Origin: an uncultured virus (IMG/VR IMGVR_UViG_2860837431_000002)
Taxonomy: Duplodnaviria; Heunggongvirae; Uroviricota; Caudoviricetes
Length of the DNA stretch: 64,000 bases
IMG/VR virus record: IMGVR_UViG_2860837431_000002
Coordinates: 1 to 64,000 of that record
Reading direction: 5' to 3' (one strand)
Of this stretch, positions 1,532 through 56,951 are shown piece by piece. Under the pieces are notes generated by a model. It had not been told where the DNA came from. It ran no database searches and saw only the letters and a list, made by a program, of their open reading frames with translations. The translations under genes and the position numbers were made by a program. Position 1 is the stretch's first letter; the number at the start of each line of letters is the position of its first letter.

Positions 1532-1924
1532 ATCCCTTAACTTATCCACTAATTTTATTTTCACTCTAAATAAAAGACCGATTTTATTTAGTTGTTTGAC
1601 TCAACTCAATTGGCTCATAATTAGTCCATTCATGAAATATTTCCTTCTGATGTTGGCTTATCTTTATTGGTTTTACCCACTTTATCTTTGAAGATTTAAT
1701 CTTGCAGTCGCTGCTTACATCCTCTGAAAGTTCATGTTTATCTCTTTTCATTGAAATAACCCTCCCCAAATTACTCCTGCAGCTATAGCAGCTATAAAGA
1801 CAGAAACAAATTTCATTATTATGAAGAATTTGATATGCTTTGTTTCATCCTCAGTTAAGTTCAAATCTGATAAAGCGAATAAGCCAAACATTATCAACAA
1901 AATCCAAGCTGTTACAATCATCTA

Positions 1925-2470
1925 CTAAGAACCTCTTTCGACTGTGTAACCACCGGTAATGTCATTTAAGATCGTGCTGCTTGGGGACAGCTTTTCACTC
2001 TTACTATCATTATTTTTAGTGTAATTAATGAAATCATCGAACTGGATCAAATACACTCCGTAAGCTGTGTTATTCAATTTATCGATGGTATCGTCACTTG
2101 GTTTGGAAAACCAGCTTTTAGTACCTTGGCCATACACTTCAAAAATTTGAACAATCTCGTTCTTATACTCAAAATAAGCCAGCTTATTTTCAAATTCACA
2201 TTCCTCATCAACTGGGTTTCCTACATGATTTGTCGCATATTCCATCATTGAAGTAAGCATATAGCCTAATTCTACGTCCGAGAAACTAAGTTGAGGTTTA
2301 GGTGTTCCATAATAAATATCAGCCTCATTTAGTGATCCTCTTTGATTAACTTCTTTAATGATTTCTTCGATAGCTGTGTAGCCTTCATGAATGATGAAAT
2401 CTCTTCGTATCTCGTCCCCTCGTTTATATTCCTCTAGGAAACTTGTTATGTTAAACTCTGCATTCTTCAT
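1925..2470 (-). CDS. Hypothetical phage protein
   Basis: 181-aa ORF with AGGAGG RBS, coupled to the upstream ORF. Confidence 0.7.
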   Translation of the reverse strand: MKNAEFNITSFLEEYKRGDEIRRDFIIHEGYTAIEEIIKEVNQRGSLNEADIYYGTPKPQLSFSDVELGYMLTSMMEYATNHVGNPVDEECEFENKLAYFEYKNEIVQIFEVYGQGTKSWFSKPSDDTIDKLNNTAYGVYLIQFDDFINYTKNNDSKSEKLSPSSTILNDITGGYTVERGS

Positions 2471-2873
2471 TTAACTCCTCCTTACTTAGGTCGATGTATT
2501 GTTGAAGACTATTCACAAACGAAATTATGCAGCTTCTTATTTCCTCTGGATCTGCAAAGTCCATTTCGCTTTTTAAGAAATACTCATCAAGTTCCAACAT
2601 TGCAAGAAAACGGTCATCTTTTGGCAAGTTATTAAAGTTAATACTCTTTAATTTAGGAATTCCTTTATTTATAAACCATTCAACAAAAAGGTTATCCTTG
2701 CTTTGTCTTTTAGCCTGGGACAAAAAATCATAAATATCTTTAGAATTCTTTATATTGAAGTATATGTGCAGGCTCTCTTTCATAAGGTCAAACACTCGCA
2801 GTAAACAACAACTAATTTTAGACTCTGAATCAGTTCTATAATATAAATCAAACCATGTTAATTTGTAATGCAC
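2451..2873 (-). CDS. Hypothetical phage protein (possible paralog of neighbour)
   Basis: 140-aa ORF, GGAGG RBS. Confidence 0.65.
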   Translation of the reverse strand: MHYKLTWFDLYYRTDSESKISCCLLRVFDLMKESLHIYFNIKNSKDIYDFLSQAKRQSKDNLFVEWFINKGIPKLKSINFNNLPKDDRFLAMLELDEYFLKSEMDFADPEEIRSCIISFVNSLQQYIDLSKEELNEECRV

Positions 2874-3270
2874 TTAATCCCTCCTTGTACAAATCGATTA
2901 TTTCTGGCACTCGTTGAAAGAAAGTAATTATGCAACCTCTAGCGTCAAAGGGGTATTCGCAATCAATTTCAGCACTGGATATGTAGATTTCATATTTTAT
3001 GCTGGATATTAGTTGCGGATTATAAGGTAGCTCGAACTGTAAGCACCTCTTCAGAATAGGTAAATGCTCATTGACATACTTTAAGAACTTCTTCTCATAG
3101 CCAGGAACCTGTTCATATAGTTTGTTTACGAGCTCTTCAATTGTATCTGTTTGTACTTTGTAGAGGTTCTCGAACAGTGTTTTGTTGATGTCCATGAGCT
3201 CACTCAAAGCTTTTACGGTTTTCTGATTTCCAGTCATAGTAACTCCCCACCACTCAAAGCATTTATCCAT
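2848..3270 (-). CDS. Hypothetical phage protein
   Basis: 140-aa ORF, AAGGA RBS. Confidence 0.65.
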   Translation of the reverse strand: MDKCFEWWGVTMTGNQKTVKALSELMDINKTLFENLYKVQTDTIEELVNKLYEQVPGYEKKFLKYVNEHLPILKRCLQFELPYNPQLISSIKYEIYISSAEIDCEYPFDARGCIITFFQRVPEIIDLYKEGLSALQINMV

Positions 3271-10907: not shown

Positions 10908-11150
10908 TTAAACAACCTCCCTTACTAACTCATCAAGCTCATCAGGCTTAAAACCAATACTTCGGTTTACTTCCTCTCCTTGATCACTCAGCAAAATAGT
11001 TACCGGTACTCCCATAACACCAAATCTAGCTGCCACTTCTGGTTCCTGTGTAACGTCAACTGTCTCAAATTGAATATTTGCTTTTTCTAAGTAATTGGAC
11101 ACCATTTTACATGGATTGCAATTAGGCTGCTCTAATTTAATCAATCTCAT
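10908..11150 (-). CDS. yosR: NrdH/thioredoxin-like protein
   Basis: CNPC active site, GVPVT motif, 80 aa, directly after nrdF. Confidence 0.9.
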
Positions 11151-11537
11151 TGCATACATCCTTTCTCGGTAAAAATGAAATCTGAATCCTTTAATGGTTC
11201 AACCGTTGCTTTTTTGTACCCGTTTCCTTTAGTTGAAAAGAAGTCATGGGATTTAGTCTTTGTACTCAATCCATTGAGAACAATTGGATTAACATCTTCC
11301 TCCTCGAACAGATGGTCGAATCCCAGATTGTTTAAAGCTTTATTTGCATTGTACCTGATGAATTTCTTCACATCTGGAGCTAAGCCAACCTGATCATAAA
11401 CATCTTCTGTATACTCCAATTCATTTTCATAAAGCTCCTGCAGTAAGCTTAGTGCCCATGCATACAGTTCTTTTTGCTTCTGAGGAGTTTGGTTCTTATA
11501 AATCTCCTGAGCTAACAATCCGACATATACGCCGTGT
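11147..11537 (-). CDS. nrdF: Class Ib RNR beta subunit, exon 2
   Basis: HGVYVG...[11 protein letters not shown]; joins exon 1 to give DEAIHGVYVG (334 aa total). Confidence 0.9.
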
Positions 11538-12525
11538 CCTTGATGTTCCCTTAAGTTCGCTATACTTAAAGCGTGGACTAACCACAGCTGCATGTCGCCA
11601 TGCAGAGCAGACTATATCACAATCCTAATTTAGGATTCCTACCGTTTCGATTTAAGGGATTCTCACCCACGCCAATCACTTGCGCCCTACTTCTGTTGCG
11701 GAATTCCACCGCCAATGGAATAGTCGTTGGGCATTTATCTAATCATCATTAAAATTGTTTTTATTTTATAAAGTATATGTTTGTTATTGAATCGTCTGAT
11801 GCAAGCTTTGATATTTTCTTCCTATCTATGCCCGTATGTAATTGAGCTTGCGAACAACTGCTGTATATTTGACCGCCAACGAAGACTTTTTTTGCTCTAG
11901 CATTATTTTCAATCATTTTCTTTATATGACTATCGCTCTTAGGGATACCTTTATTTCTCCCTTTGTTCTTTTTAGAAATAATCATTTTTGTTTTCTCAGA
12001 ATGTCGTCTTCCAAAGAAAGGATTTTTTTCTCCAATTAGCTTAGAGTGAACTTCACTTGCAACCTTTTTTGCATAATCAGATTGCGTGTATCCTTTATTT
12101 GAAAGCCCGCCGTCATTTAGGTTAAATCCACAATATTTACTGTTATAGTATGCAATGAAAAACTTCTCCATTTTTTCAGCAAGTTTGATGCTAGAACATT
12201 TGCATAATAAGTGATGTGTATACATATCAGTGCATTTATGCAAGTTAAAGTCTCTTTGCAATTTATGATTATGATGATAGTTTCCTTTTAAATAGCGAAT
12301 ATGTTGTTTAAATCTATCGTCAGCGTTGTTAACATTTTTGGTTAAGCCAATGTAAATCTTCTTATTTTGTTTATTCATTATCATATAGACATAATACAAG
12401 GCAACACTCCTAAATATTGAATTTAATGATGATTAGAATTTAGCAAAGGATTATCTTAGCTATAAGACTTCCCCTTTTTAGATAGGTTTTCATTTAACAT
12501 TACTGCTAAATGCCACTAGCACTTA
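11538..12525 (-). ncRNA. Group I intron in nrdF (988 nt) carrying a homing endonuclease
   Basis: 5' exon ends in U (GCC AT|) and intron ends in G (|A CAC); contains the GATATAGTCT S element; splicing restores the frame. Confidence 0.88.
11761..12399 (-). CDS. Intron-encoded GIY-YIG homing endonuclease with NUMOD3-like repeats
   Basis: YVY..N..N.KIYIG, R..QH, E, and GFN motifs; NPFFGRRHSEKTK. Confidence 0.88.
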   Translation of the reverse strand: MYYVYMIMNKQNKKIYIGLTKNVNNADDRFKQHIRYLKGNYHHNHKLQRDFNLHKCTDMYTHHLLCKCSSIKLAEKMEKFFIAYYNSKYCGFNLNDGGLSNKGYTQSDYAKKVASEVHSKLIGEKNPFFGRRHSEKTKMIISKKNKGRNKGIPKSDSHIKKMIENNARAKKVFVGGQIYSSCSQAQLHTGIDRKKISKLASDDSITNIYFIK

Positions 12526-13139
12526 ATGGCTTCGTCACGGATAATTAAATTCACAATTTCCCCGCTCTGCATGAGTTTCCCTTGTCCATAAAAGTAAAGT
12601 GGATAATAAAAACCTGAGTAGAAAAGGAAACTCTCCAGAAACACAGATGCAACCATTGCTTTGAATAGGGAAATGTCATCGTTTTTCTCAACTGCTTTAT
12701 AAATTGAAACAATTGTTCTTGCTTTCTTTTGAAGAAACCTATTGTTTTTCACCCATTCGAAGACTTCATTAATCTTCTCGGTTGGAGCCAAAGTTAGAAA
12801 GATGTTGCTGTAGGATTTCGCATGGACAGCGTTCTCCATCATGGCCATAAAGTTTAATACTGCTTTTCTTTGATGCCCTTCTACGTGCTCGGCCACAATC
12901 GGCATGCCAGTGTTCCCCTGCTCTGTGTCCAATAATGTAAGCCCGGCTAAAACTTTCATATAAGTGTCTTGTTCCTTTGTTCCAAGATACTTCCAAGTTA
13001 GAAGATCGCCGTTTAATGCGATCTCTTCCGGAAGCCAAAACTGCTTTACGTTTTGGTTGTAAAACATTTGGGTGAAATCATCTTCATGCTTTGACCAGTT
13101 TGCTGCCGTATACATCTTGTTTTTGTTTAGTTGTGACAA
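12526..13139 (-). CDS. nrdF: Class Ib RNR beta subunit, exon 1
   Basis: [36 protein letters not shown] motifs. Confidence 0.92.
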
Positions 13140-13255
13140 AAATGTGACCTCCTAGATATATTTCCTCCCTTAACACTTGTAAAATGAAGGAAATATTTTA
13201 TAAATGTTGTAAGTTTTATAATGCAACATATTCACTATTAAGGGAGGAATAAAAA

Positions 13256-13690
13256 TTGAAAAAGAAACTGATTATTGGTGCTTTGGTTTTAGGGCTAATG
13301 CCTACTATTGGTAATACTGCTGCTTCAGCTAAGCCGCTTCAAAATCCTCTGAAAGTCATAAATCCTTTAGCAGATGATAGGTGTAAAGGCGGTGGCACTC
13401 TAATTTGTGAAACTGGTATATTTTCAGCTAAAGGAACCTTTTATTTCGATTATTATGGAAGTGAAGACGACCAAATCAGAATTTACATTGCGAATGATGG
13501 AGCCTACCCTTTTGAGTACAGAATTACGAACCCTGACGGCAAGAGAATAGCAGACGGTATTACAGTGAAACCAGGAAAGTTCAAAGAAACAACCTTTTAC
13601 GTAAAAGATATAGAAGGTTCTTATAAAGTCCGTGTAACTAATGATGACGGTGAAGATATTAAGGCTTTTGTTAAAGCAAGGGGACTTTAA
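13256..13690 (+). CDS. Secreted beta-rich protein inserted between nrdE and nrdF
   Basis: GGGAGG RBS, Sec signal peptide ending ASA, downstream hairpin. Confidence 0.75.
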   Translation: MKKKLIIGALVLGLMPTIGNTAASAKPLQNPLKVINPLADDRCKGGGTLICETGIFSAKGTFYFDYYGSEDDQIRIYIANDGAYPFEYRITNPDGKRIADGITVKPGKFKETTFYVKDIEGSYKVRVTNDDGEDIKAFVKARGL

Positions 13691-13741
13691 TTAAAAACCC
13701 AGGAGTCAGACAGAGTTACATATGCTGACTCCTTTATTTGT

Positions 13742-15121
13742 TTAAACAACACATGACAAGCAACTATCCTGCCCAGTATCCTTTGTCCGCGCATAATACA
13801 GCGTCTTAATTCCTTTGTAATGCGCATATAAGTCAATCCGGTTTAAATCTCTTGTCGTCATCGTATCCTTCAAGAACAGCGTAAACGAAATGCCTTGATC
13901 GACGTGCTGCTGAATAGTTGCAATTAGATCAACTACCTTAAACATATCCATGTCGTACGCTTCCTTATAGAAGAACCAATTCTGAGCCGATAAACCTGGC
14001 ATTGGATAATATGTCTTACTGTTTCCGTATGTACGTTCCTCAATTCTCTCCATAATAGGCATTACACCGGCCGTAGATGATTGAACATATGAGATGCTTC
14101 CAGTAGGTGCAACAGCTTGCCTGTATGAATGATACAAGCCATATTTCATAACATTCTCTTTAAGCTTCATCCAATCTTCAATGTTAGGAATATGTTGATC
14201 TCCAAACAGGTTTTTAACCTTTTCATATTTAGGGCTATAATCATTTGTTACGTACTTATCAAAATACGCGCCTGATTTGTAGGTTGATCCATCAAACTTG
14301 TAGTACGTTTCCCCTGTTTCTCTTGCAATTTCCATTGAACGCTGCAGGGAGTAAAAGTTAACCATCATAAAGTATGTATTTGCAAAGTCTTTTGCTTCTT
14401 CACTTTCATAAGCAATTTTATTTTGAGCTAGAAAACCGTGCAGGTTCATCTGCCCTAGACCAATTGATCTCATTAGTGTATTTGCTCTCGCAACTGCTGG
14501 AGCATTTACAATGTTTGTTTTCCTTGTGACAGTTGTCAATGAGTCAATTGCTATTCTTACTGTTGAAGCAATTGATTGATTACTCATTACATTTACAATG
14601 TTCATTGAGCCAAGATTGCAGGAGATATCTAAACCAATTTCATCCTCTTTATCGTAATCCGTATACACTGATACTTGTGATGATTGGAGGACTTCAGAAC
14701 ACAAATTTGAAAACTTCACTTTTGAAATATGTTCATTTGGATGCACTTTATTTACATTGTCAGCGAACATAATATACGGATAGCCTGATTCGCTTCTTAG
14801 AATGGCCAATTGCTCTAACAGCTTTCGAGTATTCCCTTTAGCTTTTCTAACCCTAGGGTTTTCAACAAGCTCATCATACATTTCATTAATATCCATCTCA
14901 TCAAGATACTGCCCATATTCCTTATATACTGAATGCGGATAGAACTTGTAATAATCCTTGTCTTCCCTTGCAAGTTCAATAAATTTATCAGGAACAACTA
15001 CACCAATAGACAGTGTTTTAACTCTGACATCTTCATCAGCACTTATTTTTTTGGTATCCAGGAAGTCTGTAATGTCTGGATGGAATACACTTAGATAAAC
15101 TGCTCCTGATCCTTGTCTTTG
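13742..15121 (-). CDS. nrdE: Class Ib RNR alpha subunit, exon 2
   Basis: QRQGSG, SNLCSE, APTGSIS, KTLYY motifs; C-terminal CLSCVV. Confidence 0.93.
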   Translation of the reverse strand, partial: QRQGSGAVYLSVFHPDITDFLDTKKISADEDVRVKTLSIGVVVPDKFIELAREDKDYYKFYPHSVYKEYGQYLDEMDINEMYDELVENPRVRKAKGNTRKLLEQLAILRSESGYPYIMFADNVNKVHPNEHISKVKFSNLCSEVLQSSQVSVYTDYDKEDEIGLDISCNLGSMNIVNVMSNQSIASTVRIAIDSLTTVTRKTNIVNAPAVARANTLMRSIGLGQMNLHGFLAQNKIAYESEEAKDFANTYFMMVNFYSLQRSMEIARETGETYYKFDGSTYKSGAYFDKYVTNDYSPKYEKVKNLFGDQHIPNIEDWMKLKENVMKYGLYHSYRQAVAPTGSISYVQSSTAGVMPIMERIEERTYGNSKTYYPMPGLSAQNWFFYKEAYDMDMFKVVDLIATIQQHVDQGISFTLFLKDTMTTRDLNRIDLYAHYKGIKTLYYARTKDTGQDSCLSCVV

Positions 15122-15373
15122 CAGACCATTCAAACGTGTTCGCTAAGCACGCCCCGCCATATGGCTGCTTCATGTTACCATGAAGGTTAGACTATATCTT
15201 CACCCTCTAAGGGTGCCTCCTGTTTCGACTGCCAATAGCTTGCAGCCTACGCCTTTCGGCTAGTCGTTGCACGTTCAAGACTTAGTCTTGCTTCGCTCAT
15301 GATTGTCCCTGTAGGAGTTCCCATGAATTAAAGAGGTTTTCGATCACCATTGCTGATGAAAGGGGCCAAATCA
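15122..15373 (-). ncRNA. ORF-less group I intron in nrdE (252 nt)
   Basis: GGT|UGA...CUG|CAA boundaries; AAGATATAGTCT element; splicing gives DQMGQRQG and a 699-aa NrdE. Confidence 0.9.
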
Positions 15374-16093
15374 ACCCATTTGGTCGGCATATCTGAAGGC
15401 ATTATCTAGAAGTTTCATAACACCTACGACACCTTTGGTCGCATTCTCTACGTCTTTAATCGCTTCACCTTTGGCTCTTAGTTTGTTTAGATTTAATGCT
15501 ACTCCTCCACCTAGCTTAGAAAGCTGCATGGAGATATCAATAGCACGTGAAATATCATTCAAACTGTCGCCTACTTCAAGTAAGAAGCAGCTCACCATTT
15601 CACCTCTTCGCTTACGTCCAGCATTAAGGAATGCAGGTGTTGCCGGCTGATACTCTTGTTTCATCATAGTATGTACTTCCTCAACTGCTTTCTCGTAATC
15701 ACCATCCGCGCAATACAAAGCCACAATTGAGACACGATCCTCGTACCTCTCCAGGATCTTTGTTTTATCATTTGTTTTCAATGCGTAGTCATTGTAGAAC
15801 TTAAACGCACTCATAAAAGATGGGAATCTGAATTTGTAACTGTAAGCAATCTTATAAATTGATTTAATCTGTTCAAATGTATATTTGCTTAAGAATTCTT
15901 CTTCGTAATAATCATTTTTAATCAAATAATCAAGTTTCTCTTTTAGATCATGGAAAAAGACTGTGTTTTGATTTATGTAATCAACAAAGTAACTATGTAC
16001 TGCCTCCTTATCCTTCTCAAATTGAAACTTACCGTCTTTCTGAATCATGATCTCATTATTGAGCTTGATCCACTTTGGTATTGTGTTTGTCAA
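15374..16093 (-). CDS. nrdE: Class Ib RNR alpha subunit, exon 1
   Basis: TTG start after AGGAGG; QPATP.FLNAG, VSCF and GGGV motifs. Confidence 0.92.
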
Positions 16094-16451
16094 TAAGTTG
16101 TACCTCCTGAATGATCTTTTGTAAGTCATGTTTCGTTCCACTTAGTTCAAATTTTAATAACAATGGTGTGTGGAACTTAGCTGAAAGCTTGTCTCCAGCT
16201 AAACCATAGTTATCACCCCAAAACTTGTTACCACTAACGACAACTCCTCTTATTTTATTTTTATTCTTATTGATAAAACTCAAAGTCCTTTTAGGTACTT
16301 CCCCAAAGCCTATCGTATATGTAATATGTATGAACTCTTGAGTGATGATCGTATCATCAGTTATTTCAATTGCCTCAATGTCTAACTCTTGTTGCAACGC
16401 TTTTACAAACCTTCTTACATTGCCAGTTTTACTCTCATATGTAATGATCAC
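16056..16451 (-). CDS. nrdI: NrdI flavodoxin
   Basis: YESKTGNV, TYTIGFG, SGNKFWG and KFELSG motifs. Confidence 0.93.
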   Translation of the reverse strand: MIITYESKTGNVRRFVKALQQELDIEAIEITDDTIITQEFIHITYTIGFGEVPKRTLSFINKNKNKIRGVVVSGNKFWGDNYGLAGDKLSAKFHTPLLLKFELSGTKHDLQKIIQEVQLIDKHNTKVDQAQ

Positions 16452-20768: not shown

Positions 20769-20807
20769 TAAACATCCCTTTATCCTTTCATTTTTTCTTG
20801 AAACAAT

Positions 20808-21173
20808 TTAATGAATCAAGCCTTGATTTGTATTTGGTTTAATATTGTGTAAATTGATTAGGTTAGTTAACCGCTCGATTTCCTTACTCATCGCATAACA
20901 TTGATCAACATAAAATTTCTTTGGCATAATCACAAACTGGCCATTTTTAAATCCTTCCGCACCTGCTTCTTGCATTGCTGCTGGAAAGATATCAATTAGA
21001 CTCCCTTTTTTAAAGCTCTCAATATACTCATCTACTGAAATAGTGTGCAAAACCCTAGCTAATACTCCATTGGTCTTTTCATCGTTATGTACGTAAATGC
21101 TTTGTGTATGTGGCTCAATAACTACAAAATCAAGAGCGTTTACCAAGTCAATTTTTTCTTGATCAGTTAGCAT
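20808..21173 (-). CDS. YorW-like protein
   Basis: 121 aa, synteny. Confidence 0.6.
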   Translation of the reverse strand: MLTDQEKIDLVNALDFVVIEPHTQSIYVHNDEKTNGVLARVLHTISVDEYIESFKKGSLIDIFPAAMQEAGAEGFKNGQFVIMPKKFYVDQCYAMSKEIERLTNLINLHNIKPNTNQGLIH

Positions 21174-21176
21174 ATT

Positions 21177-21395
21177 TCACTCTCCTTTTAAATACGACTT
21201 GAAAAACTCACTTAAGTTATCAGCCATAGCTGCAGCAACTTCAGAAAAGTATCTATGTCTTTTCTCCTCTGATTTCAAAAACTCAACTGTCGTTTCTGCA
21301 ATTTCTTTAATCCTGTCTTCTTTGATATTTCCATTCCTAACACGCTCTTTAATCTCCTCTGTCTCTCTTTTTAAGGACTCAGGGTAACTTTCCAA
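21177..21395 (-). CDS. YorV-like protein
   Basis: 72 aa, synteny next to the methyltransferase locus. Confidence 0.6.
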   Translation of the reverse strand: MESYPESLKRETEEIKERVRNGNIKEDRIKEIAETTVEFLKSEEKRHRYFSEVAAAMADNLSEFFKSYLKGE

Positions 21396-21442
21396 TCAAT
21401 ACACTCCTCTTATTTTACATTTGTTTAAAAGACAAATTTTAT

Positions 21443-22153
21443 CTAAATTGCTACTTCTGTATGTACACCTTTTGACTCTGAAAAATCAGCGTAGCTTAAA
21501 ATATGAGCTATAACATCAACTGTCCATCCGTCCCCAAGCATATTGTATCTATGACCGTCTGCAACACCTCCTGTATAACCTTCAGGTACAGTTTGCAGTC
21601 TCTCGTATTCCAGAGGAGTAAGTTTTCTAACTCTACCATTATGTATAACTTTCTTTTGCTTATGGCCTCCTCTACATGCTGTTAAGGTTGGAGCTTTAAA
21701 ATGGGGGCTGTATACCCTTTGTAAAATATCATAGTTGTATAAATCAAGCCTTGCAGCTATTCGCTTATGTAGCCCATAAAAATCATAATTAAGATTGTAA
21801 TAATATTTTTCATCAACATTTTCCTCAAGAATATCTGCTAAGACCTGGTGCCTTTCATTAGGTTGTTTAACGTTTGGAATGTTAGTCCAGTAATATCTTC
21901 TTCTTTCTTGTGCAGAAAGTAGTCCACTATCAATCATTATTGGTTCAACGCCTAAGTTTTTAGTAATCGTATCTTTGTCCTTCTCTTTCATACTCTCAAC
22001 ATTTTCATATAGAAAATACTTGGGCTTAACTGTTTTTAACACCCTCACATACTCAAAGAACAATTTTGATTTATCCCCTGCCAAGCCTGTAAAATGCTCT
22101 TCACGATCCGCTACAGTTATAGAGAGGTTCTGACATGGACTCCCGCCTAACAA
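21443..22153 (-). pseudogene. C5 cytosine DNA methyltransferase, 3' part (motifs IV-X), separated from its 5' part by an inversion
   Basis: GGSPCQ (IV), YENV (VI), AQERRRYYW (VIII), RKLTPLEYERLQ (IX), LGDGW (X); has no motif I and no RBS. Confidence 0.9.
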
Positions 22154-22409
22154 AAGATCAATTTTATTCAGAATAAAAATAAAATATATGGAGTGATTTA
22201 GTGAGAGTACTAAGTTTATTTGACGGAATGAGTTGCGGACAAATTGCGCTAAATAAAATTGGCATTACTAATTATGAATATTATGCTAGTGAAATCGAAA
22301 AATCGAGCATCACTGTAACACAAAGGAACTATCCTTCCACAGTTCAACTAGGCAATATTTTAGAATTAGATGAAAGTAAACTAAAAAGATTAAATAAAAT
22401 TGATCTTTT
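22152..22409. repeat. Perfect 17-bp inverted repeats flanking an inverted segment
   Basis: AAAAGATCAATTTTATT (22152-22168) and AATAAAATTGATCTTTT (22393-22409). Confidence 0.95.
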
Positions 22410-22467
22410 ATATAGTTCCAAAGCATATTTTACAGATATTTCTACTCATTTACATTTTTATCCTTAA
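22201..22467 (+). pseudogene. C5 cytosine DNA methyltransferase, 5' part (motifs I-III), on the opposite strand
   Basis: GGAG RBS, GTG start; VLSLFDG (motif I), ASEIE and LGNI; homology ends at NKIDLL inside the right repeat. Confidence 0.9.
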
Positions 22468-22516
22468 GTTCTATACTGAATTTGTAATACATAATTTTAC
22501 AAGGGAGACGGTAATT

Positions 22517-22933
22517 ATGAAAAGAAAGATTTTTTCCACTAGTCTTTTAGCATTAACTATGGTAAGTGCATCATTTACTGGTGCAAGTGCAGCAACTTTA
22601 AATGAAAGCAAAGTAAGTGAAGATGCACCATTTAGTATTAAGAGAACGACAATTTATAATAGCGTTCCTAGCTGGTACCAAGGTTCTGCCTCCGCAAAAA
22701 TTGATGGTGTTTATGATGAAACTAAATTTCTTCTTACTAATTACAGCTCTAAATCAGTAAACTATAAAATTACCAAAGGCTCAACAGATATGAAATCGGG
22801 TACTATTGCTGGTAACGATTCGGTAACTTTCAACCTTAAAAAGCCATTGTTTAATAGTAGTGATTACATTGTTGAACTATATACTAACGATTCTTCTAAC
22901 AGAAGTGTTGGTATTAAGGCAGTTGGTTTGTAA
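22517..22933 (+). CDS. Secreted beta-rich protein
   Basis: GGGAG RBS, signal peptide ending ASAA; terminator AAAGCGCCTATATGGGCGTTTTTT downstream. Confidence 0.75.
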   Translation: MKRKIFSTSLLALTMVSASFTGASAATLNESKVSEDAPFSIKRTTIYNSVPSWYQGSASAKIDGVYDETKFLLTNYSSKSVNYKITKGSTDMKSGTIAGNDSVTFNLKKPLFNSSDYIVELYTNDSSNRSVGIKAVGL

Positions 22934-23109
22934 GTTGTTTAAAGCGCCTATATGGGCGTTTTTTTTTGCGAAATATGTATTCATAAAAATTTTAACTCCA
23001 CTCTATAAAAGAGATATTCTAATCAGTTTCACAAACACTTCACACATTTCAAATATTTTACATGCTAGACTAGAGTTGTATCACAATCAAAACCTGGGAG
23101 GTAATTCTT

Positions 23110-23457
23110 ATGAAAAAGTTTTACAAAGGATTGATTGTTTCTGCCTTATCTCTAACCACTCTGGCTCTCCCTGCTTTCACATCACAAGCCTCAGCTCTTA
23201 CGCCTGTTAAATCAGTTGACCAAGTTAAACAACTAGGTGATCCGATTGGTACAGTTGATTTCCACATGTTAAGGAATTCTAACGTTTCCCTATTAACAGG
23301 TTACACCCGATGGGAAATAGTATCTGGCAGTAACCTCATTAGCATTAGTTCCGGCGGTGTTGTTTCTTCTCATTCAACACTGGGCACAGCAGTGATTTAT
23401 GCATACGATATTAATGATAATTATGTTATTTATAAAATCACAGTAGAACCACGGTAG
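23110..23457 (+). CDS. Secreted protein, possibly Ig-like
   Basis: GGGAGG RBS, signal peptide ending ASA; beta-strand pattern. Confidence 0.75.
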   Translation: MKKFYKGLIVSALSLTTLALPAFTSQASALTPVKSVDQVKQLGDPIGTVDFHMLRNSNVSLLTGYTRWEIVSGSNLISISSGGVVSSHSTLGTAVIYAYDINDNYVIYKITVEPR

Positions 23458-23496
23458 TTAACTAAGGAGTGCTAGTTCACTCCTTCCCTCTTTGTT

Positions 23497-23994
23497 TTAC
23501 TCAAATAATTGAATCAAATCTTCAACAATCTCATCGCTGCCCCATTGTCCTGTATCCCATGAATATGTATGTAATCCAGCACTGCTCATAACTTCTCTGT
23601 ATAACTCCAAAATTGAATCAATGTCTTTTCCTACTATGTACTCATCACCCCGTACGCTTAACCGTTCCTTAATAATGCTTGGATCAGCATGTAAGTATAC
23701 AACCTTCGCTTTTGCTTTAATTTTATCCTCAATAATCCTAAGCTGCTGTTCTGTAAGGATCGAGTAATCTTTGAATTTCTTTGCATAAACCAAGTTAGAA
23801 TAAACAAACCTGTCAATAATCACGTTGTCTTCGTCAGCTAATTTGTTGAAGTGCTCGAATAATTTCTCATTCCCGCTTGTGGCCAACTCAAAGCTTGAAC
23901 CTTTGATAATTGGATACTTCAGTTCTTTGCTTAGCTTTGCTGCAACTGTTGATTTAAAGCAGCAATCAGGCCCCTCCAAGATAATTAATGCCAT
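23497..23994 (-). CDS. yorR: Nucleotide kinase (thymidylate kinase-like)
   Basis: LEGPDCCFKST P-loop, IDRF; 165 aa. Confidence 0.85.
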   Translation of the reverse strand: MALIILEGPDCCFKSTVAAKLSKELKYPIIKGSSFELATSGNEKLFEHFNKLADEDNVIIDRFVYSNLVYAKKFKDYSILTEQQLRIIEDKIKAKAKVVYLHADPSIIKERLSVRGDEYIVGKDIDSILELYREVMSSAGLHTYSWDTGQWGSDEIVEDLIQLFE

Positions 23995-53182: not shown

Positions 53183-54160
53183 TTAAATGGTCGTCTCTTT
53201 TAGACCTAGTTCTTCTGCGTAATATTTATTAACTTCTTCCTCATTAATATAATCTTGCATTGAATAAACTGCTCGATATTTGGATTTCACTCTTAAATTA
53301 AAGTCATCTATAATCTGATACCTTACAGAGTTATCAATAACCCCTTTTTCTTTATAAAGCTGATATGCTCTATACAAATGACCAGATCTAACAATAGTAT
53401 TTGGTGTTAAAAAGTTAATTTTAAAGAACTCAGATATATCAGTAATTAGATTAGTTATGACAAATTTACTTGCTTGGCCGTCTCCTTTGTTGGATGTTCT
53501 TTTTGTTTTAACTACATAATCATTTTCAACTAAAAAGACTTCTTTTGTTTGGCCTTTTGCCTTCCCATTCTTTAATTTATATTTAGTTTCCTGAGCTGCA
53601 TTTAAGGCAATAACAAGACATTCACTACTAACTTTTAGTTTTCGTTCACCGTGCTTTGAATCATAGAGGGTTAAAACGTTACCATTTAGCATCGCATCCT
53701 CAACTTGCTTTTTCGTTAAACTTAGCAATTCAGAATGAGCTAAACCTGAAACCCCTTCAAACAACAGCCTTAATACAGCCTTTGATTGATAATTAACTAA
53801 TTGACTTTCCATTTCTTCTAATTCACTATAGGTAATATATAATTTTTTATCCCCAAGACACTCATAAAGCTCTTCTTCTGAAATAGTTCTTGCTAAATTG
53901 GTTAATCCTTTACTTAACTTATATGAAATTGCCCAATCAATATACAATGACAATAATGCTAAGGTTCTCCGAACACTACCGATAGTGGTTTGATCAAATG
54001 ATCGTATAAGTTCTAAAATTTGCATTGATGTGAAATCATAAATGTCCTTATTATATAAAGTCTCAGTAATCTCTGCTTTAGCAAAAATAGGCCTCATCTG
54101 CAAAACCATACCCTCAGATAAGGTATCTAAATATTTTTCCTTAATCTCACTATTGAACAT
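53183..54160 (-). CDS. yopR: Master repressor MrpR/SroF (degenerate tyrosine-recombinase fold)
   Basis: 325 aa, last gene of the yopM-R operon; catalytic Arg/HxxR not evident. Confidence 0.85.
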   Translation of the reverse strand: MFNSEIKEKYLDTLSEGMVLQMRPIFAKAEITETLYNKDIYDFTSMQILELIRSFDQTTIGSVRRTLALLSLYIDWAISYKLSKGLTNLARTISEEELYECLGDKKLYITYSELEEMESQLVNYQSKAVLRLLFEGVSGLAHSELLSLTKKQVEDAMLNGNVLTLYDSKHGERKLKVSSECLVIALNAAQETKYKLKNGKAKGQTKEVFLVENDYVVKTKRTSNKGDGQASKFVITNLITDISEFFKINFLTPNTIVRSGHLYRAYQLYKEKGVIDNSVRYQIIDDFNLRVKSKYRAVYSMQDYINEEEVNKYYAEELGLKETTI

Positions 54161-54183
54161 TGCAACAAACAACTCCTAAGTAA

Positions 54184-55672: not shown

Positions 55673-56749
55673 TTATCGCTCATTTACATGCTTTATAAAC
55701 TTTTTTAATGTAACAAGATCAGCGTTTTCAAAAAAACTAATAAAATCCTCTTGGGTTGCTTCATATAGTGGATTTAAATCGATTTTTTCATCCATTGTTA
55801 CACCAGCAGAGTTCTCTATGTTAATCTTTCTGCTCATATATCTCTCTGTTGTTAATGTGTTTTTATGATTTCCTTGTTCTTTTGCTGCAAGTAAATCGTG
55901 ACCAGAATTCTCATAGACATAGTCAATTCCTACACCCTTAAATGAGTGTAAGACTAATTCTCTTTCAGGAGGTATTCCTAATCTTTTTTTCGACCTTTTT
56001 AAGGAGTGTCGTAAAGATTGTTCCGAAAGCCCCTGAAAAACCAATTCAGTTTCGATGTCATCCTCTTCCTTCAGCTGCAACAATTCCTCATAAAATACCT
56101 GGTTAATGCCTGTAGACACAACCTGAGATCCTTTATCAATAACTGTTACTATATAATGGCCTGTACTTTCATCAAGCTGTATGTCTTTCCATCTTACTCG
56201 CAAAATCGCACTTACACGAAAAGAAGTTCTGATGGCGAATTTAACAAACAGCTTTTTCATTAAAGGTTTCTGTCTTTCATTTATATACATATCCTGAGCG
56301 ATTCTTTCGGCTTCTGTCTGGGTTGTTTTATCCCAGTTTTTAGTTACTGTTTTAAGCCTTTCGACAGTATTAAACACCGACAAGTCAATATAGTCCTTAT
56401 AATCATGCTCCAAATATGTATAGAGCATCTTCAGGGAGGTCATTTTTCTGTTAATACTATTATTAACTAATCCCTTTTCCTGAAGATACTTCACATAGTT
56501 GCTTAATTCGCTTTTACTTACAACTAAATCATCGGGAACTAAACTTTTGACATCTTTACCTTTAATCACACTAAAGAACTGCTTAATATCCCCTTCATAA
56601 TTCTTTCTGGTGTTCGACACCCTTCTAGTTGATGAAGGCATCATATAGTTAGAATTCCCTGAGCTACTTCTTATATCTTTATTGATTAAAAAGCCCTCGA
56701 TATCATCGTAAACCGCATAATTTTTTAATTGTTTAACTTTATTTTGCAT
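55673..56749 (-). CDS. yopP: YopP/SroD tyrosine-recombinase-family protein
   Basis: SAM-like N-domain; SFRVSAI, DKG, LHSFK, GNH and TERY motifs; 358 aa. Confidence 0.85.
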   Translation of the reverse strand: MQNKVKQLKNYAVYDDIEGFLINKDIRSSSGNSNYMMPSSTRRVSNTRKNYEGDIKQFFSVIKGKDVKSLVPDDLVVSKSELSNYVKYLQEKGLVNNSINRKMTSLKMLYTYLEHDYKDYIDLSVFNTVERLKTVTKNWDKTTQTEAERIAQDMYINERQKPLMKKLFVKFAIRTSFRVSAILRVRWKDIQLDESTGHYIVTVIDKGSQVVSTGINQVFYEELLQLKEEDDIETELVFQGLSEQSLRHSLKRSKKRLGIPPERELVLHSFKGVGIDYVYENSGHDLLAAKEQGNHKNTLTTERYMSRKINIENSAGVTMDEKIDLNPLYEATQEDFISFFENADLVTLKKFIKHVNER

Positions 56750-56951
56750 TATCTTCTCCTCCTTTCTCATCCAATAACTCATCAATAGAGACATTCAATA
56801 CCAGAGCGATAAGCTTTATGGTTGTAACATCTGATTCATCTGGCATTTCAATGATTTTGTTTAATTTCTGAATATCAATCATTGTCTCCCTCGACAATTC
56901 CTCTATTGTGATGCCACGTTTGACCATTAGCTGTTTTATTCGCTCTGACAT
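56739..56951 (-). CDS. yopO: XRE HTH regulator SroC
   Basis: 70-aa HTH. Confidence 0.8.
   Translation of the reverse strand: MSERIKQLMVKRGITIEELSRETMIDIQKLNKIIEMPDESDVTTIKLIALVLNVSIDELLDEKGGEDNAK

Follow-up and report, generated by a model that had tools for sequence, protein, structure and literature searches.

The stretch of DNA analysed here (hereafter the window) covers positions 1 to 64,000 of an IMG/VR provirus record of 131,607 bp, IMGVR_UViG_2860837431_000002, from an SPbeta-like Bacillus provirus. It contains a gene for a cytosine-5 DNA methyltransferase that lies in two pieces of opposite orientation, parted at a short inverted repeat. The arms of this repeat, at 22152–22168 (AAAAGATCAATTTTATT) and 22393–22409 (AATAAAATTGATCTTTT), form – as the initial annotation had stated – a perfect 17-bp inverted repeat, with 224 nt between them. 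The arm sequence occurs in exactly two exact copies in the 64-kb window, with no others; when up to three mismatches are allowed, arm-like matches number 11 against 2.94 expected, a count reached by only one of 100 shuffles.

A methyltransferase gene divided at an inverted repeat

From arm to arm, the invertible block measures 258 bp (22152–22409) and carries the ribosome-binding site, the start codon and codons 1–69 of the 305-aa methyltransferase. It is inverted relative to codons 70–305, which occupy 21443–22153 on the minus strand, and the flipped part amounts to roughly the first fifth of the gene. In the orientation found in the window – referred to here as OFF – the 224-bp core of the block (22169–22392, plus strand) holds the leader, a ribosome-binding site (GGAG, 22190–22193), a GTG start codon (22201) and codons 1–64. 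The left arm is the copy that lies within the gene when the gene is intact, where it encodes NKIDL(L), and positions 22150–22167 constitute a one-mismatch copy of a palindromic motif that recurs throughout the phage (see below). The right arm falls within a perfect copy of the same motif (22394–22411, ATAAAATTGATCTTTTAT), a conserved site that bounds the slot of the gene on its 5′ side.

The N-terminal fragment is an open reading frame (ORF) of 88 aa (22201–22467, plus strand), in which 69 methyltransferase residues are followed by an unrelated tail of 19 aa. The C-terminal fragment consists of the remaining 236 codons, from GGSPCQ (motif IV) to the stop codon (21443–22153, minus strand), and in the OFF orientation has no ribosome-binding site ahead of it, there being no GGAGG upstream of 22153. 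Both fragments match the methyltransferase family PF00145 above its cut-off of 22 bits, the first with 24.5 bits over profile positions 1–67 and the second with 84.9 bits (E 8.9e-24) from position 66 onward; the pieces are thus complementary halves, broken exactly at the arms.

Flipping the block back yields 64 + 5 + 236 = 305 codons, reading ...KRLNKIDLLLGGSPCQ..., and a natural protein of 305 aa, P0125, found on eight contigs, is identical to both halves (0/235 and 0/68 differences), so that the prediction of an intact gene of about 305 aa is matched by an existing protein. After the same operation TGAATAAAATTGATCTTTTAT sits upstream of the ribosome-binding site, which is the canonical site that had been expected there. 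The N-terminal fragment, too, is found as such elsewhere: P0137, the same fragment as the 88-aa ORF of the window, occurs on eight contigs.

P0125 scores 120.3 bits against TIGR00675 (cut-off 100.65), and the translations contain FDGMSCG, GGSPCQ and YENV, which we take to represent the C5 methyltransferase motifs FxGxG (the AdoMet-binding loop), PCQ (the nucleophile) and ENV, respectively. Judged by these profiles and motifs, the split gene encodes a cytosine-5 DNA methyltransferase. The central claim of the initial annotation – a C5 methyltransferase broken by inversion between two copies of a recurring palindromic site – is borne out by the two PF00145 halves, by the inverted block seen with blastn in relatives (see below) and by the motif copies at the arms. 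Because one arm lies upstream of the ribosome-binding site, and hence outside the gene, when the gene is intact, the element is better described as partial intergenic than as strictly intragenic. A promoter within the block that would drive the neighbouring plus-strand genes was considered as well and rejected, as the promoter-like sites number 12 against 8.9 expected and none inside the block is notable.

Both orientations in related phages

Searches with the C-terminal half returned 205 loci. In 189 of these the match begins within the first ten residues, and these 189 divide into 78 loci with the N-terminal part immediately upstream on the same strand, two with it on the opposite strand (L005 and L082) and 109, mostly distant or short, in which tblastn did not find it. 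The close clade, at amino acid identities of 93% or more, comprises seven records, three of them split (the window, L005 and L082, Bacillus rugosus) and four intact (L003, L004, L006 and L007). Compared by blastn with the four intact relatives, the window differs by an inversion of exactly the 258 bp from arm to arm, and both arms are present and identical in all seven records. Among 19 more distant intact relatives (at most 73% amino acid identity), no repeat longer than 9 bp connects the corresponding regions, as against a 19-bp repeat in the three intact clade members tested and 17 bp in the window; on these comparisons the repeat is specific to the close clade. The comparison of related prophages that had been proposed to probe the inversion thus recovers both orientations, with breakpoints at the repeats. 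Metagenome contigs provided no relative above 70% identity and hence no added ON or OFF cases, and the collection of isolated phages contained no close copy of the methyltransferase, a single record reaching 60–80% identity and the others remaining below 60%.

Sequencing runs were compared in the form of Logan contigs, which drop rare variants, and four runs were aligned. One contig of run X1, which may be the window's own source, reproduces positions 20800–23600 with 0 differences. Run X9, from another study and about 2% divergent, is colinear with the window over 20800–22647 (37 differences), meaning that it is split as well. Run X7, from a third study, matches 20800–22151 with 11 differences, continues with 0 differences through 22152–22409 on the opposite strand and resumes at 23021; this pattern indicates that a phage about 99% identical to that of the window, with an essentially identical gene, carries the gene intact and does so without the neighbouring cassette. 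Misassembly, which the initial annotation had named as a possible explanation, can be ruled out by the X1 contig and by the same arrangement in further records.

Identical alleles in both states

The methyltransferase falls into a 90% protein cluster that has 47 members, with 40 sequences read and 15 listed; contig counts within it do not stand for independent strains. Among the listed members there are eight intact forms (303–305 aa) on 49 contigs and five C-terminal fragments (236–239 aa) on 22 contigs, the split forms thereby accounting for 22 of 71 contigs. Matching N-terminal fragments of 85–92 aa exist, and a second small cluster contains a shorter gene call (213 aa) of a split copy from B. 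subtilis J24/J26. For annotation, the consequence is that pipelines call the split form as two 'DNA cytosine methyltransferase' proteins, one of 85–92 and one of 236–239 aa. Apart from the window's organism, split forms come from B. velezensis, the B. amyloliquefaciens group, B. rugosus and B. subtilis J24/J26.

Three split forms are identical to intact ones – P0122 to P0125, P0129 to P0126 and P0131 to P0124, each with 0/235 differences – while the three alleles shared in this way differ from one another by 8–12 residues. On a tree of 13 alleles, five changes of state are needed for the five split rows, and state is not clustered (the shuffled mean being 4.2). The inversion arose independently at least three times, and by these counts at least three to five times. 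Among the listed cluster members every truncated form represents the inversion, with no truncation by nonsense mutation or frameshift.

In the split copies both halves remain open, with no disruption of frame. The dN/dS ratio, calculated by the Nei–Gojobori method over 304 codons with the halves counted separately and then summed, is 0.12–0.15 between split copies (at dS of 0.14–0.16) and 0.06–0.18 between intact copies, and the deficit of non-synonymous changes in split–split pairs has a binomial p of ~1e-9. This substitution pattern indicates that the split copies are under purifying selection; either all of them are young, or they have been intact for much of their time.

A palindromic site at gene boundaries

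The right arm lies in a perfect copy of the palindrome ATAAAA-N6-TTTTAT, of which the window contains 15 exact copies against 0.41 expected. In the whole provirus there are 22 exact copies, all with a 6-nt spacer, while other spacings from 0 to 14 give 0 or 1 copy each. With up to one mismatch the number rises to 40 per provirus, 34 of them outside ORFs even though ORFs cover 91% of the sequence. The palindrome typically stands downstream of a gene's stop codon and ahead of the ribosome-binding site of the gene that follows, for example at window positions 1570, 6171, 25443, 45864 and 62952. A symmetrised profile of 39 sites is conserved in each half from −4 to +6, giving arms of 11 bp around 6 central nucleotides that are nearly free. 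Core sites of the Xer/dif type consist of two inverted arms of about 11 bp around a central region of 6–8 bp, a geometry that this 11-6-11 layout fits. The only sites that have a spacer in common are the two methyltransferase arms. As single strands, the sites fold weakly (mean −2.9 kcal/mol).

The palindrome was also considered as the SPBRE, or MrpR (SroF) operator, and rejected, the word shared upstream of seven SPbeta SPBRE genes being a different, A/T-rich one. That operator is a 15-bp motif by ChAP-seq, in about ten promoter regions bound by MrpR; in the available part of a preprint (bioRxiv 10.1101/2025.11.27.690993), the box in the SroF–DNA structure measures 24–26 bp, is non-palindromic and is bound by a monomer. 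No published function for the ATAAAA-N6-TTTTAT palindrome was found in the literature.

The slot that holds the split gene lies between a yorV homologue (21177–21395, minus strand) and a 115-aa gene (23110–23457, plus strand), and is the slot of the classical methylase genes of SPbeta, phi3T and SPR. Its content varies between phages: SPbeta has mtbP, SPR the 439-aa M.SPRI with a small ORF, and Goe11 a hypothetical protein of 156 aa. The flanks are 95–98% identical to SPR, Goe11, Goe14, SPbetaL4 and others; 27 phage records match a 2.7-kb query from the region, none of them covering 80% of it. At its 3′ end the slot is bounded by another one-mismatch copy of the motif (21425–21442, TTAAAAGACAAATTTTAT), which follows the stop codon directly and is also found after mtbP, the phi3T methylase gene and M.SPRI. 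At 21442 (query 643) or 21448 (query 649) homology ends for SPbeta, phi3T and 18 further phage records, that is, at the end of the site behind the stop codon or six bases past it. When homology blocks shared with SPbeta and phi3T are considered, 44 distinct block ends fall in gene-boundary zones, and 15 of these are no more than 10 nt away from a site, where 10.3% would be expected (p = 1.9e-5). Because alignments tend to stop at a conserved motif, this enrichment, part of which is an alignment effect, supports module junctions at the sites without proving them, and the proposal that the sites are recombinogenic gains partial support from it.

At the 5′ boundary, mtbP, phi3T_150 (the phi3T methylase gene) and, with one mismatch, M.SPRI are preceded by a conserved series of arm (with its GATCAA centre), leader and ribosome-binding site, which identifies the right arm as the ancestral boundary of the slot. 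The left arm would have arrived with the smaller methyltransferase, whose AT-rich codons for NKIDLL come close to the sequence of the site. A 62%-identical relative has 13 bases of the in-gene arm in common and lacks the upstream partner; the last few matches of the arm may stem from chance, from selection or from conversion in the course of earlier flips.

Candidate catalysts of the inversion

The recombinase candidates in the provirus are one SprA-like serine integrase, one YopP-like tyrosine recombinase and MrpR. The first, a 549-aa large serine integrase at ~129.4 kb, is the only PF00239 match in the provirus. The second belongs to the XerC superfamily (55673–56794, minus strand; PF00589 and PF02899), is the sole PF00589 match in the provirus, lies about 33 kb from the methyltransferase locus and is 99% identical to YopP of SPbeta. 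In the accessible portion of the literature on this protein (PMC8612738), YopP is listed with a XerC-superfamily domain and no known role. That it acts on the palindromic sites is speculative. Inspected by eye, the YopP proteins of the window and of SPbeta read HSFK in box II and RVSA in box I, while the phi3T homologue (L212:9285–10355), which is 34% identical to them, reads HSLR and RKSE, at positions resembling catalytic residues of tyrosine recombinases; the residues of the former make their competence doubtful. A phmmer search of YopP against the PDB returned no match. The third candidate, a homologue of the master repressor MrpR/SroF with a recombinase fold (53183–54172, minus strand; PF22823 and PF22822), was set aside as the flipping enzyme for want of recombinase activity: as far as the available text of PMC10516654 goes, MrpR no longer functions as a recombinase.

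Among the phage's further proteins are a Sak4-like annealing protein and a RecJ-like exonuclease, which could support events at short homologies. Short-homology or replication-based recombination, possibly with these two proteins, is in our judgement a somewhat less than even prospect as the catalyst. A site-specific recombinase acting on the 11-6-11 site comes out at much the same level or marginally below it, and within that share the phage's own YopP-like enzyme is an unlikely, if not negligible, candidate.

A proposed switch and its alternatives

We propose the following sequence of events. A palindromic 5′ boundary of the slot is followed by the leader and ribosome-binding site, and some 225 bp downstream the NKIDLL codons form an inverted copy of the same site. 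Recombination between the two copies would flip the leader, the ribosome-binding site, the start codon and the first 64 codons. In the ON orientation the 305-aa enzyme would be produced; in the OFF orientation, which is that of the window, only the 88-aa N-terminal stub would be translatable and the catalytic part would have no ribosome-binding site. As the arms remain perfect after the flip, the same process could flip the block back. The element is thus probably a 'partial intergenic inverton': an inversion that recurs, is mechanistically reversible and toggles an anti-restriction methyltransferase of the phage. Switching would take place on short time scales within a lineage, and its benefit would be one of bet-hedging, for example against methylation-dependent restriction.

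Several observations weigh against such a switch. The contigs of each isolate run straight through the locus in a single orientation, and five runs of the possible source strain (three samples) hold 100% of the sampled words of the OFF form, from which it follows that the majority state is stable in that strain. A metagenome (X6) considered as containing both orientations, with contigs that end at 22168 and start at 22152, was rejected: its breaks are ambiguous, and they were not counted because other SPbeta-like phages share the arm and leader. The comparison of alleles covers 15 listed members of the cluster's 47. That the arms are conserved is by itself no evidence of selection for the repeat, because a conserved peptide is encoded by the in-gene arm and phages with unrelated methylase genes also keep the other arm; by our estimate about 1.5 changes would be expected in the arms against 0 observed, which is not significant, the synonymous sites being too few. 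The provirus has no Hin-type invertase, there is no recombinase next to the locus, and in its YopP, by eye, Lys stands in place of the second catalytic Arg and Ala in place of the acidic residue.

Part of this evidence is what one would expect of recurrent accidental inactivation in one direction only, a reading that we regard as unlikely, albeit deserving of some weight. The repeat of 17–19 bp, with 224 bp between its arms, would then be a mutational hot spot (RecA-independent, template-switch or phage-annealase), and the split prophages would be young dead ends, carried vertically, with no programmed or adaptive switching. Such a reading would accommodate the lack of a dedicated invertase in the provirus, the single orientation of each isolate and the stably OFF source strain in its five runs; it also takes up the fact that the in-gene arm is AT-rich coding of NKIDLL, of which the 62%-identical relative has 13 bases by chance, and a recent origin of every split copy would predict low dN/dS just as well. 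Strictly one-way behaviour is mechanistically unlikely, however, since a process able to flip a perfect inverted repeat can flip it back, and accidental loss sits poorly with split forms on 22 of 71 contigs among the listed members, with origins numbering at least three to five and with no other type of truncating mutation listed.

The initial annotation had left the choice between a reversible switch and a one-off event; the former is now favoured, and the latter effectively excluded by identical alleles in both states three times over, by the near-identical intact phage and by purifying selection. A single historical inversion that left a dead pseudogene, inherited by descent, could draw on a slightly greater similarity of the window, L082 and L005 among themselves than with the four intact loci. 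The identity of alleles across both states in three lineages, an intact X7 that is ~99–100% identical to the window, the five changes of state that the tree requires and a dN/dS of 0.12–0.15 between split copies leave it with a very slight chance, and a pseudogene shared by descent appears excluded by these comparisons. Scarcely more probable is that both orientations are functional, the 88-aa and 236-aa fragments being made separately and joining to form an active split methyltransferase; purifying selection on both halves would then be accounted for as well. Examples of split and complementing C5 methyltransferases are indeed known, and both halves here are open and constrained; the C-terminal fragment, however, has no ribosome-binding site and only a TTG in AT-rich sequence, the tails of the N-terminal fragments vary between records, and repeated inversions would still be needed. 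An assembly artefact, for which no supporting point was found, is the least credible of all: the 17-bp repeat is shorter than the word sizes of assemblers, the independent Logan contig of X1 (perhaps from the same sample as the window's source) shows 0 differences, and the arrangement recurs in X9, L005, L082 and the records of four named species.

A wider proposal would regard the ATAAAA-N6-TTTTAT elements as the working sites of a phage Xer-type tyrosine recombinase (YopP or a partner), with SPbeta-like phages running an integron-like system for the insertion, exchange and inversion of single-gene cassettes. Most sites would be kept from recombining with each other by their different spacers, and the methyltransferase switch would be a programmed output that came into being once an in-gene sequence had gained the same spacer in inverted orientation. 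We consider this improbable.

The methyltransferase and its presumed role

The closest solved structures to P0125 are the catalytic domains of Dnmt3A/3B (E 2.5e-29), with M.HhaI weaker (E 7e-12) and M.HaeIII also behind; JGI labels many of the relatives 'methyltransferase 3A'. Two further members of the family deserve mention. In L011 (IMGVR_UViG_2832702071_000001, ~1735–3000), a 63%-identical relative carries an insertion of ~350 aa exactly at the catalytic motif, GGSP-[C...VHN]-CQ, and this insertion at the PCQ cysteine has the look of an intein. P0123, an intact allele of 303 aa on 12 contigs (B. velezensis) in the cluster of P0002, has a different C-terminal tail after SYADF, which suggests a frameshift near the 3′ end with all motifs kept.

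Methyltransferases of the SPbeta group are textbook anti-restriction enzymes of phages. According to the part available of PMC8270828, MtbP of SPbeta methylates GGCC before packaging and so protects the next infection from host restriction. By analogy, the 305-aa enzyme would methylate phage DNA before packaging and shield the progeny from restriction. If the off state is heritable and reversible, a temperate phage could release progeny of both kinds, methylated and unmethylated, and so hedge between two types of host, those cutting unmethylated DNA and those cutting methylated DNA, by a route different from the tail-fibre inversions of Mu and P1. The question could be pursued in the genetically easiest Gram-positive phage–host pair, with natural ON and OFF alleles of identical sequence already present in public genomes, and an answer might provide a function for the phage-wide boundary palindrome and for the XerC-like YopP.

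Relation to known invertible and boundary elements

In the G segment of phage Mu (Gin) and the C segment of phage P1 (Cin), the ends of tail-fibre genes are flipped by a dedicated, adjacent serine invertase with an enhancer. The element described here is likewise a phage-borne invertible segment, one that would diversify the ability of progeny to infect different hosts, but its target is a methyltransferase, and the provirus has no such invertase. Conserved sequences at gene boundaries are known from other mosaic phages, such as the boundary sequences of lambdoid phages and the promoter-early stem-loops of T4. As in these cases, short conserved intergenic elements of the SPbeta type appear to coincide with junctions of exchanged modules; unlike them, the SPbeta-type element is strictly palindromic around a spacer fixed at 6 nt, and one of its copies has an in-gene counterpart with which it inverts part of a gene.

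Phasevarions can be switched by simple-sequence repeats, a repeat-tract mechanism that has no counterpart in the present element. Closer to it are the Type I hsdS invertons, in which – as far as the accessible text goes (PMC7672463) – methylation capacity is similarly switched by a heritable, reversible change in DNA. These are host restriction–modification systems that change specificity or host gene expression, whereas here a self-protection enzyme of a phage would be turned on and off.

Programmed inversions that alter genes, including partial intergenic invertons, are well established (Milman et al. 2023, PMC9881135; Chanin et al. 2023, PMC10028968). From what is available of these two papers, the resemblance is close: a short inverted repeat has one arm in a gene and one outside it, the inversion alters the encoded product, and restriction–modification and phage genes are typical targets. 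The methyltransferase element differs in that it would be a plain ON/OFF device for an orphan C5 methyltransferase in a temperate phage, with no swap of alternative domains, that no invertase gene is linked to it and that one of its arms is a copy of a phage-wide gene-boundary motif. It also differs in how it is known, for published invertons are defined by the coexistence of both orientations in one clone, and here the orientations come from the contigs of separate records.

With MtbP (M.SPbetaI), M.Phi3TI and M.SPRI, as presented in the available part of PMC8270828, the split gene shares its slot between yorV and yorR homologues and the order of upstream site, leader, ribosome-binding site and downstream site. 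The enzyme itself is different and smaller (305 as against 439–443 aa), and the classical genes have no full in-gene arm: SPR has a copy with four mismatches, and no copy at up to four mismatches is found in mtbP or the phi3T gene.

Searches of the literature yielded no description of an inversion switch in a C5 methyltransferase of the SPbeta group or of another phage. As to the supplements of the inverton papers, one from PMC9881135 contains none of the Bacillus names sought and no 'cytosine', and eight files of PMC10028968 do not contain 'velezensis', 'subtilis' or 'methyltransferase', one of the eight being available in part, so that absence there is no proof. The inverton principle is, then, already known; what would be new is the plain on/off flip of a phage anti-restriction gene, with no linked invertase and with a genome-wide boundary element as one arm.

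Neighbouring genes and other observations

Next to the split gene lies a single-gene cassette (22410–23020, plus strand) with a 138-aa ORF (22517–22933) that has a signal-peptide-like start and its own promoter-like (22449–22477) and terminator-like (22941–22962) sites; no Pfam or NCBIfam family matched this ORF. Bounded by the right arm and a degenerate copy of the motif (23005–23021), the cassette is missing from X7 and from the intact relatives. A link between the cassette and the OFF state was considered and rejected, since L005 is OFF as well and has another neighbour. The 115-aa ORF that closes the slot (23110–23457, plus strand) matches NCBIfam NF053514 (the BLB8/JUQZ-1 family, with a model name ending in 'ocin') with 44.6 bits against a cut-off of 40, and its product may be a secreted, bacteriocin-like protein.

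Elsewhere in the window, the ribonucleotide reductase genes are interrupted (11147–16141, minus strand). The halves of nrdF (11147–11593 and 12516–13139) flank an ORF for a GIY-YIG endonuclease (11761–12399), and nrdE is in two pieces (13742–15133 and 15371–16141), an arrangement that resembles the intron- and intein-bearing bnrdE and bnrdF of SPbeta.

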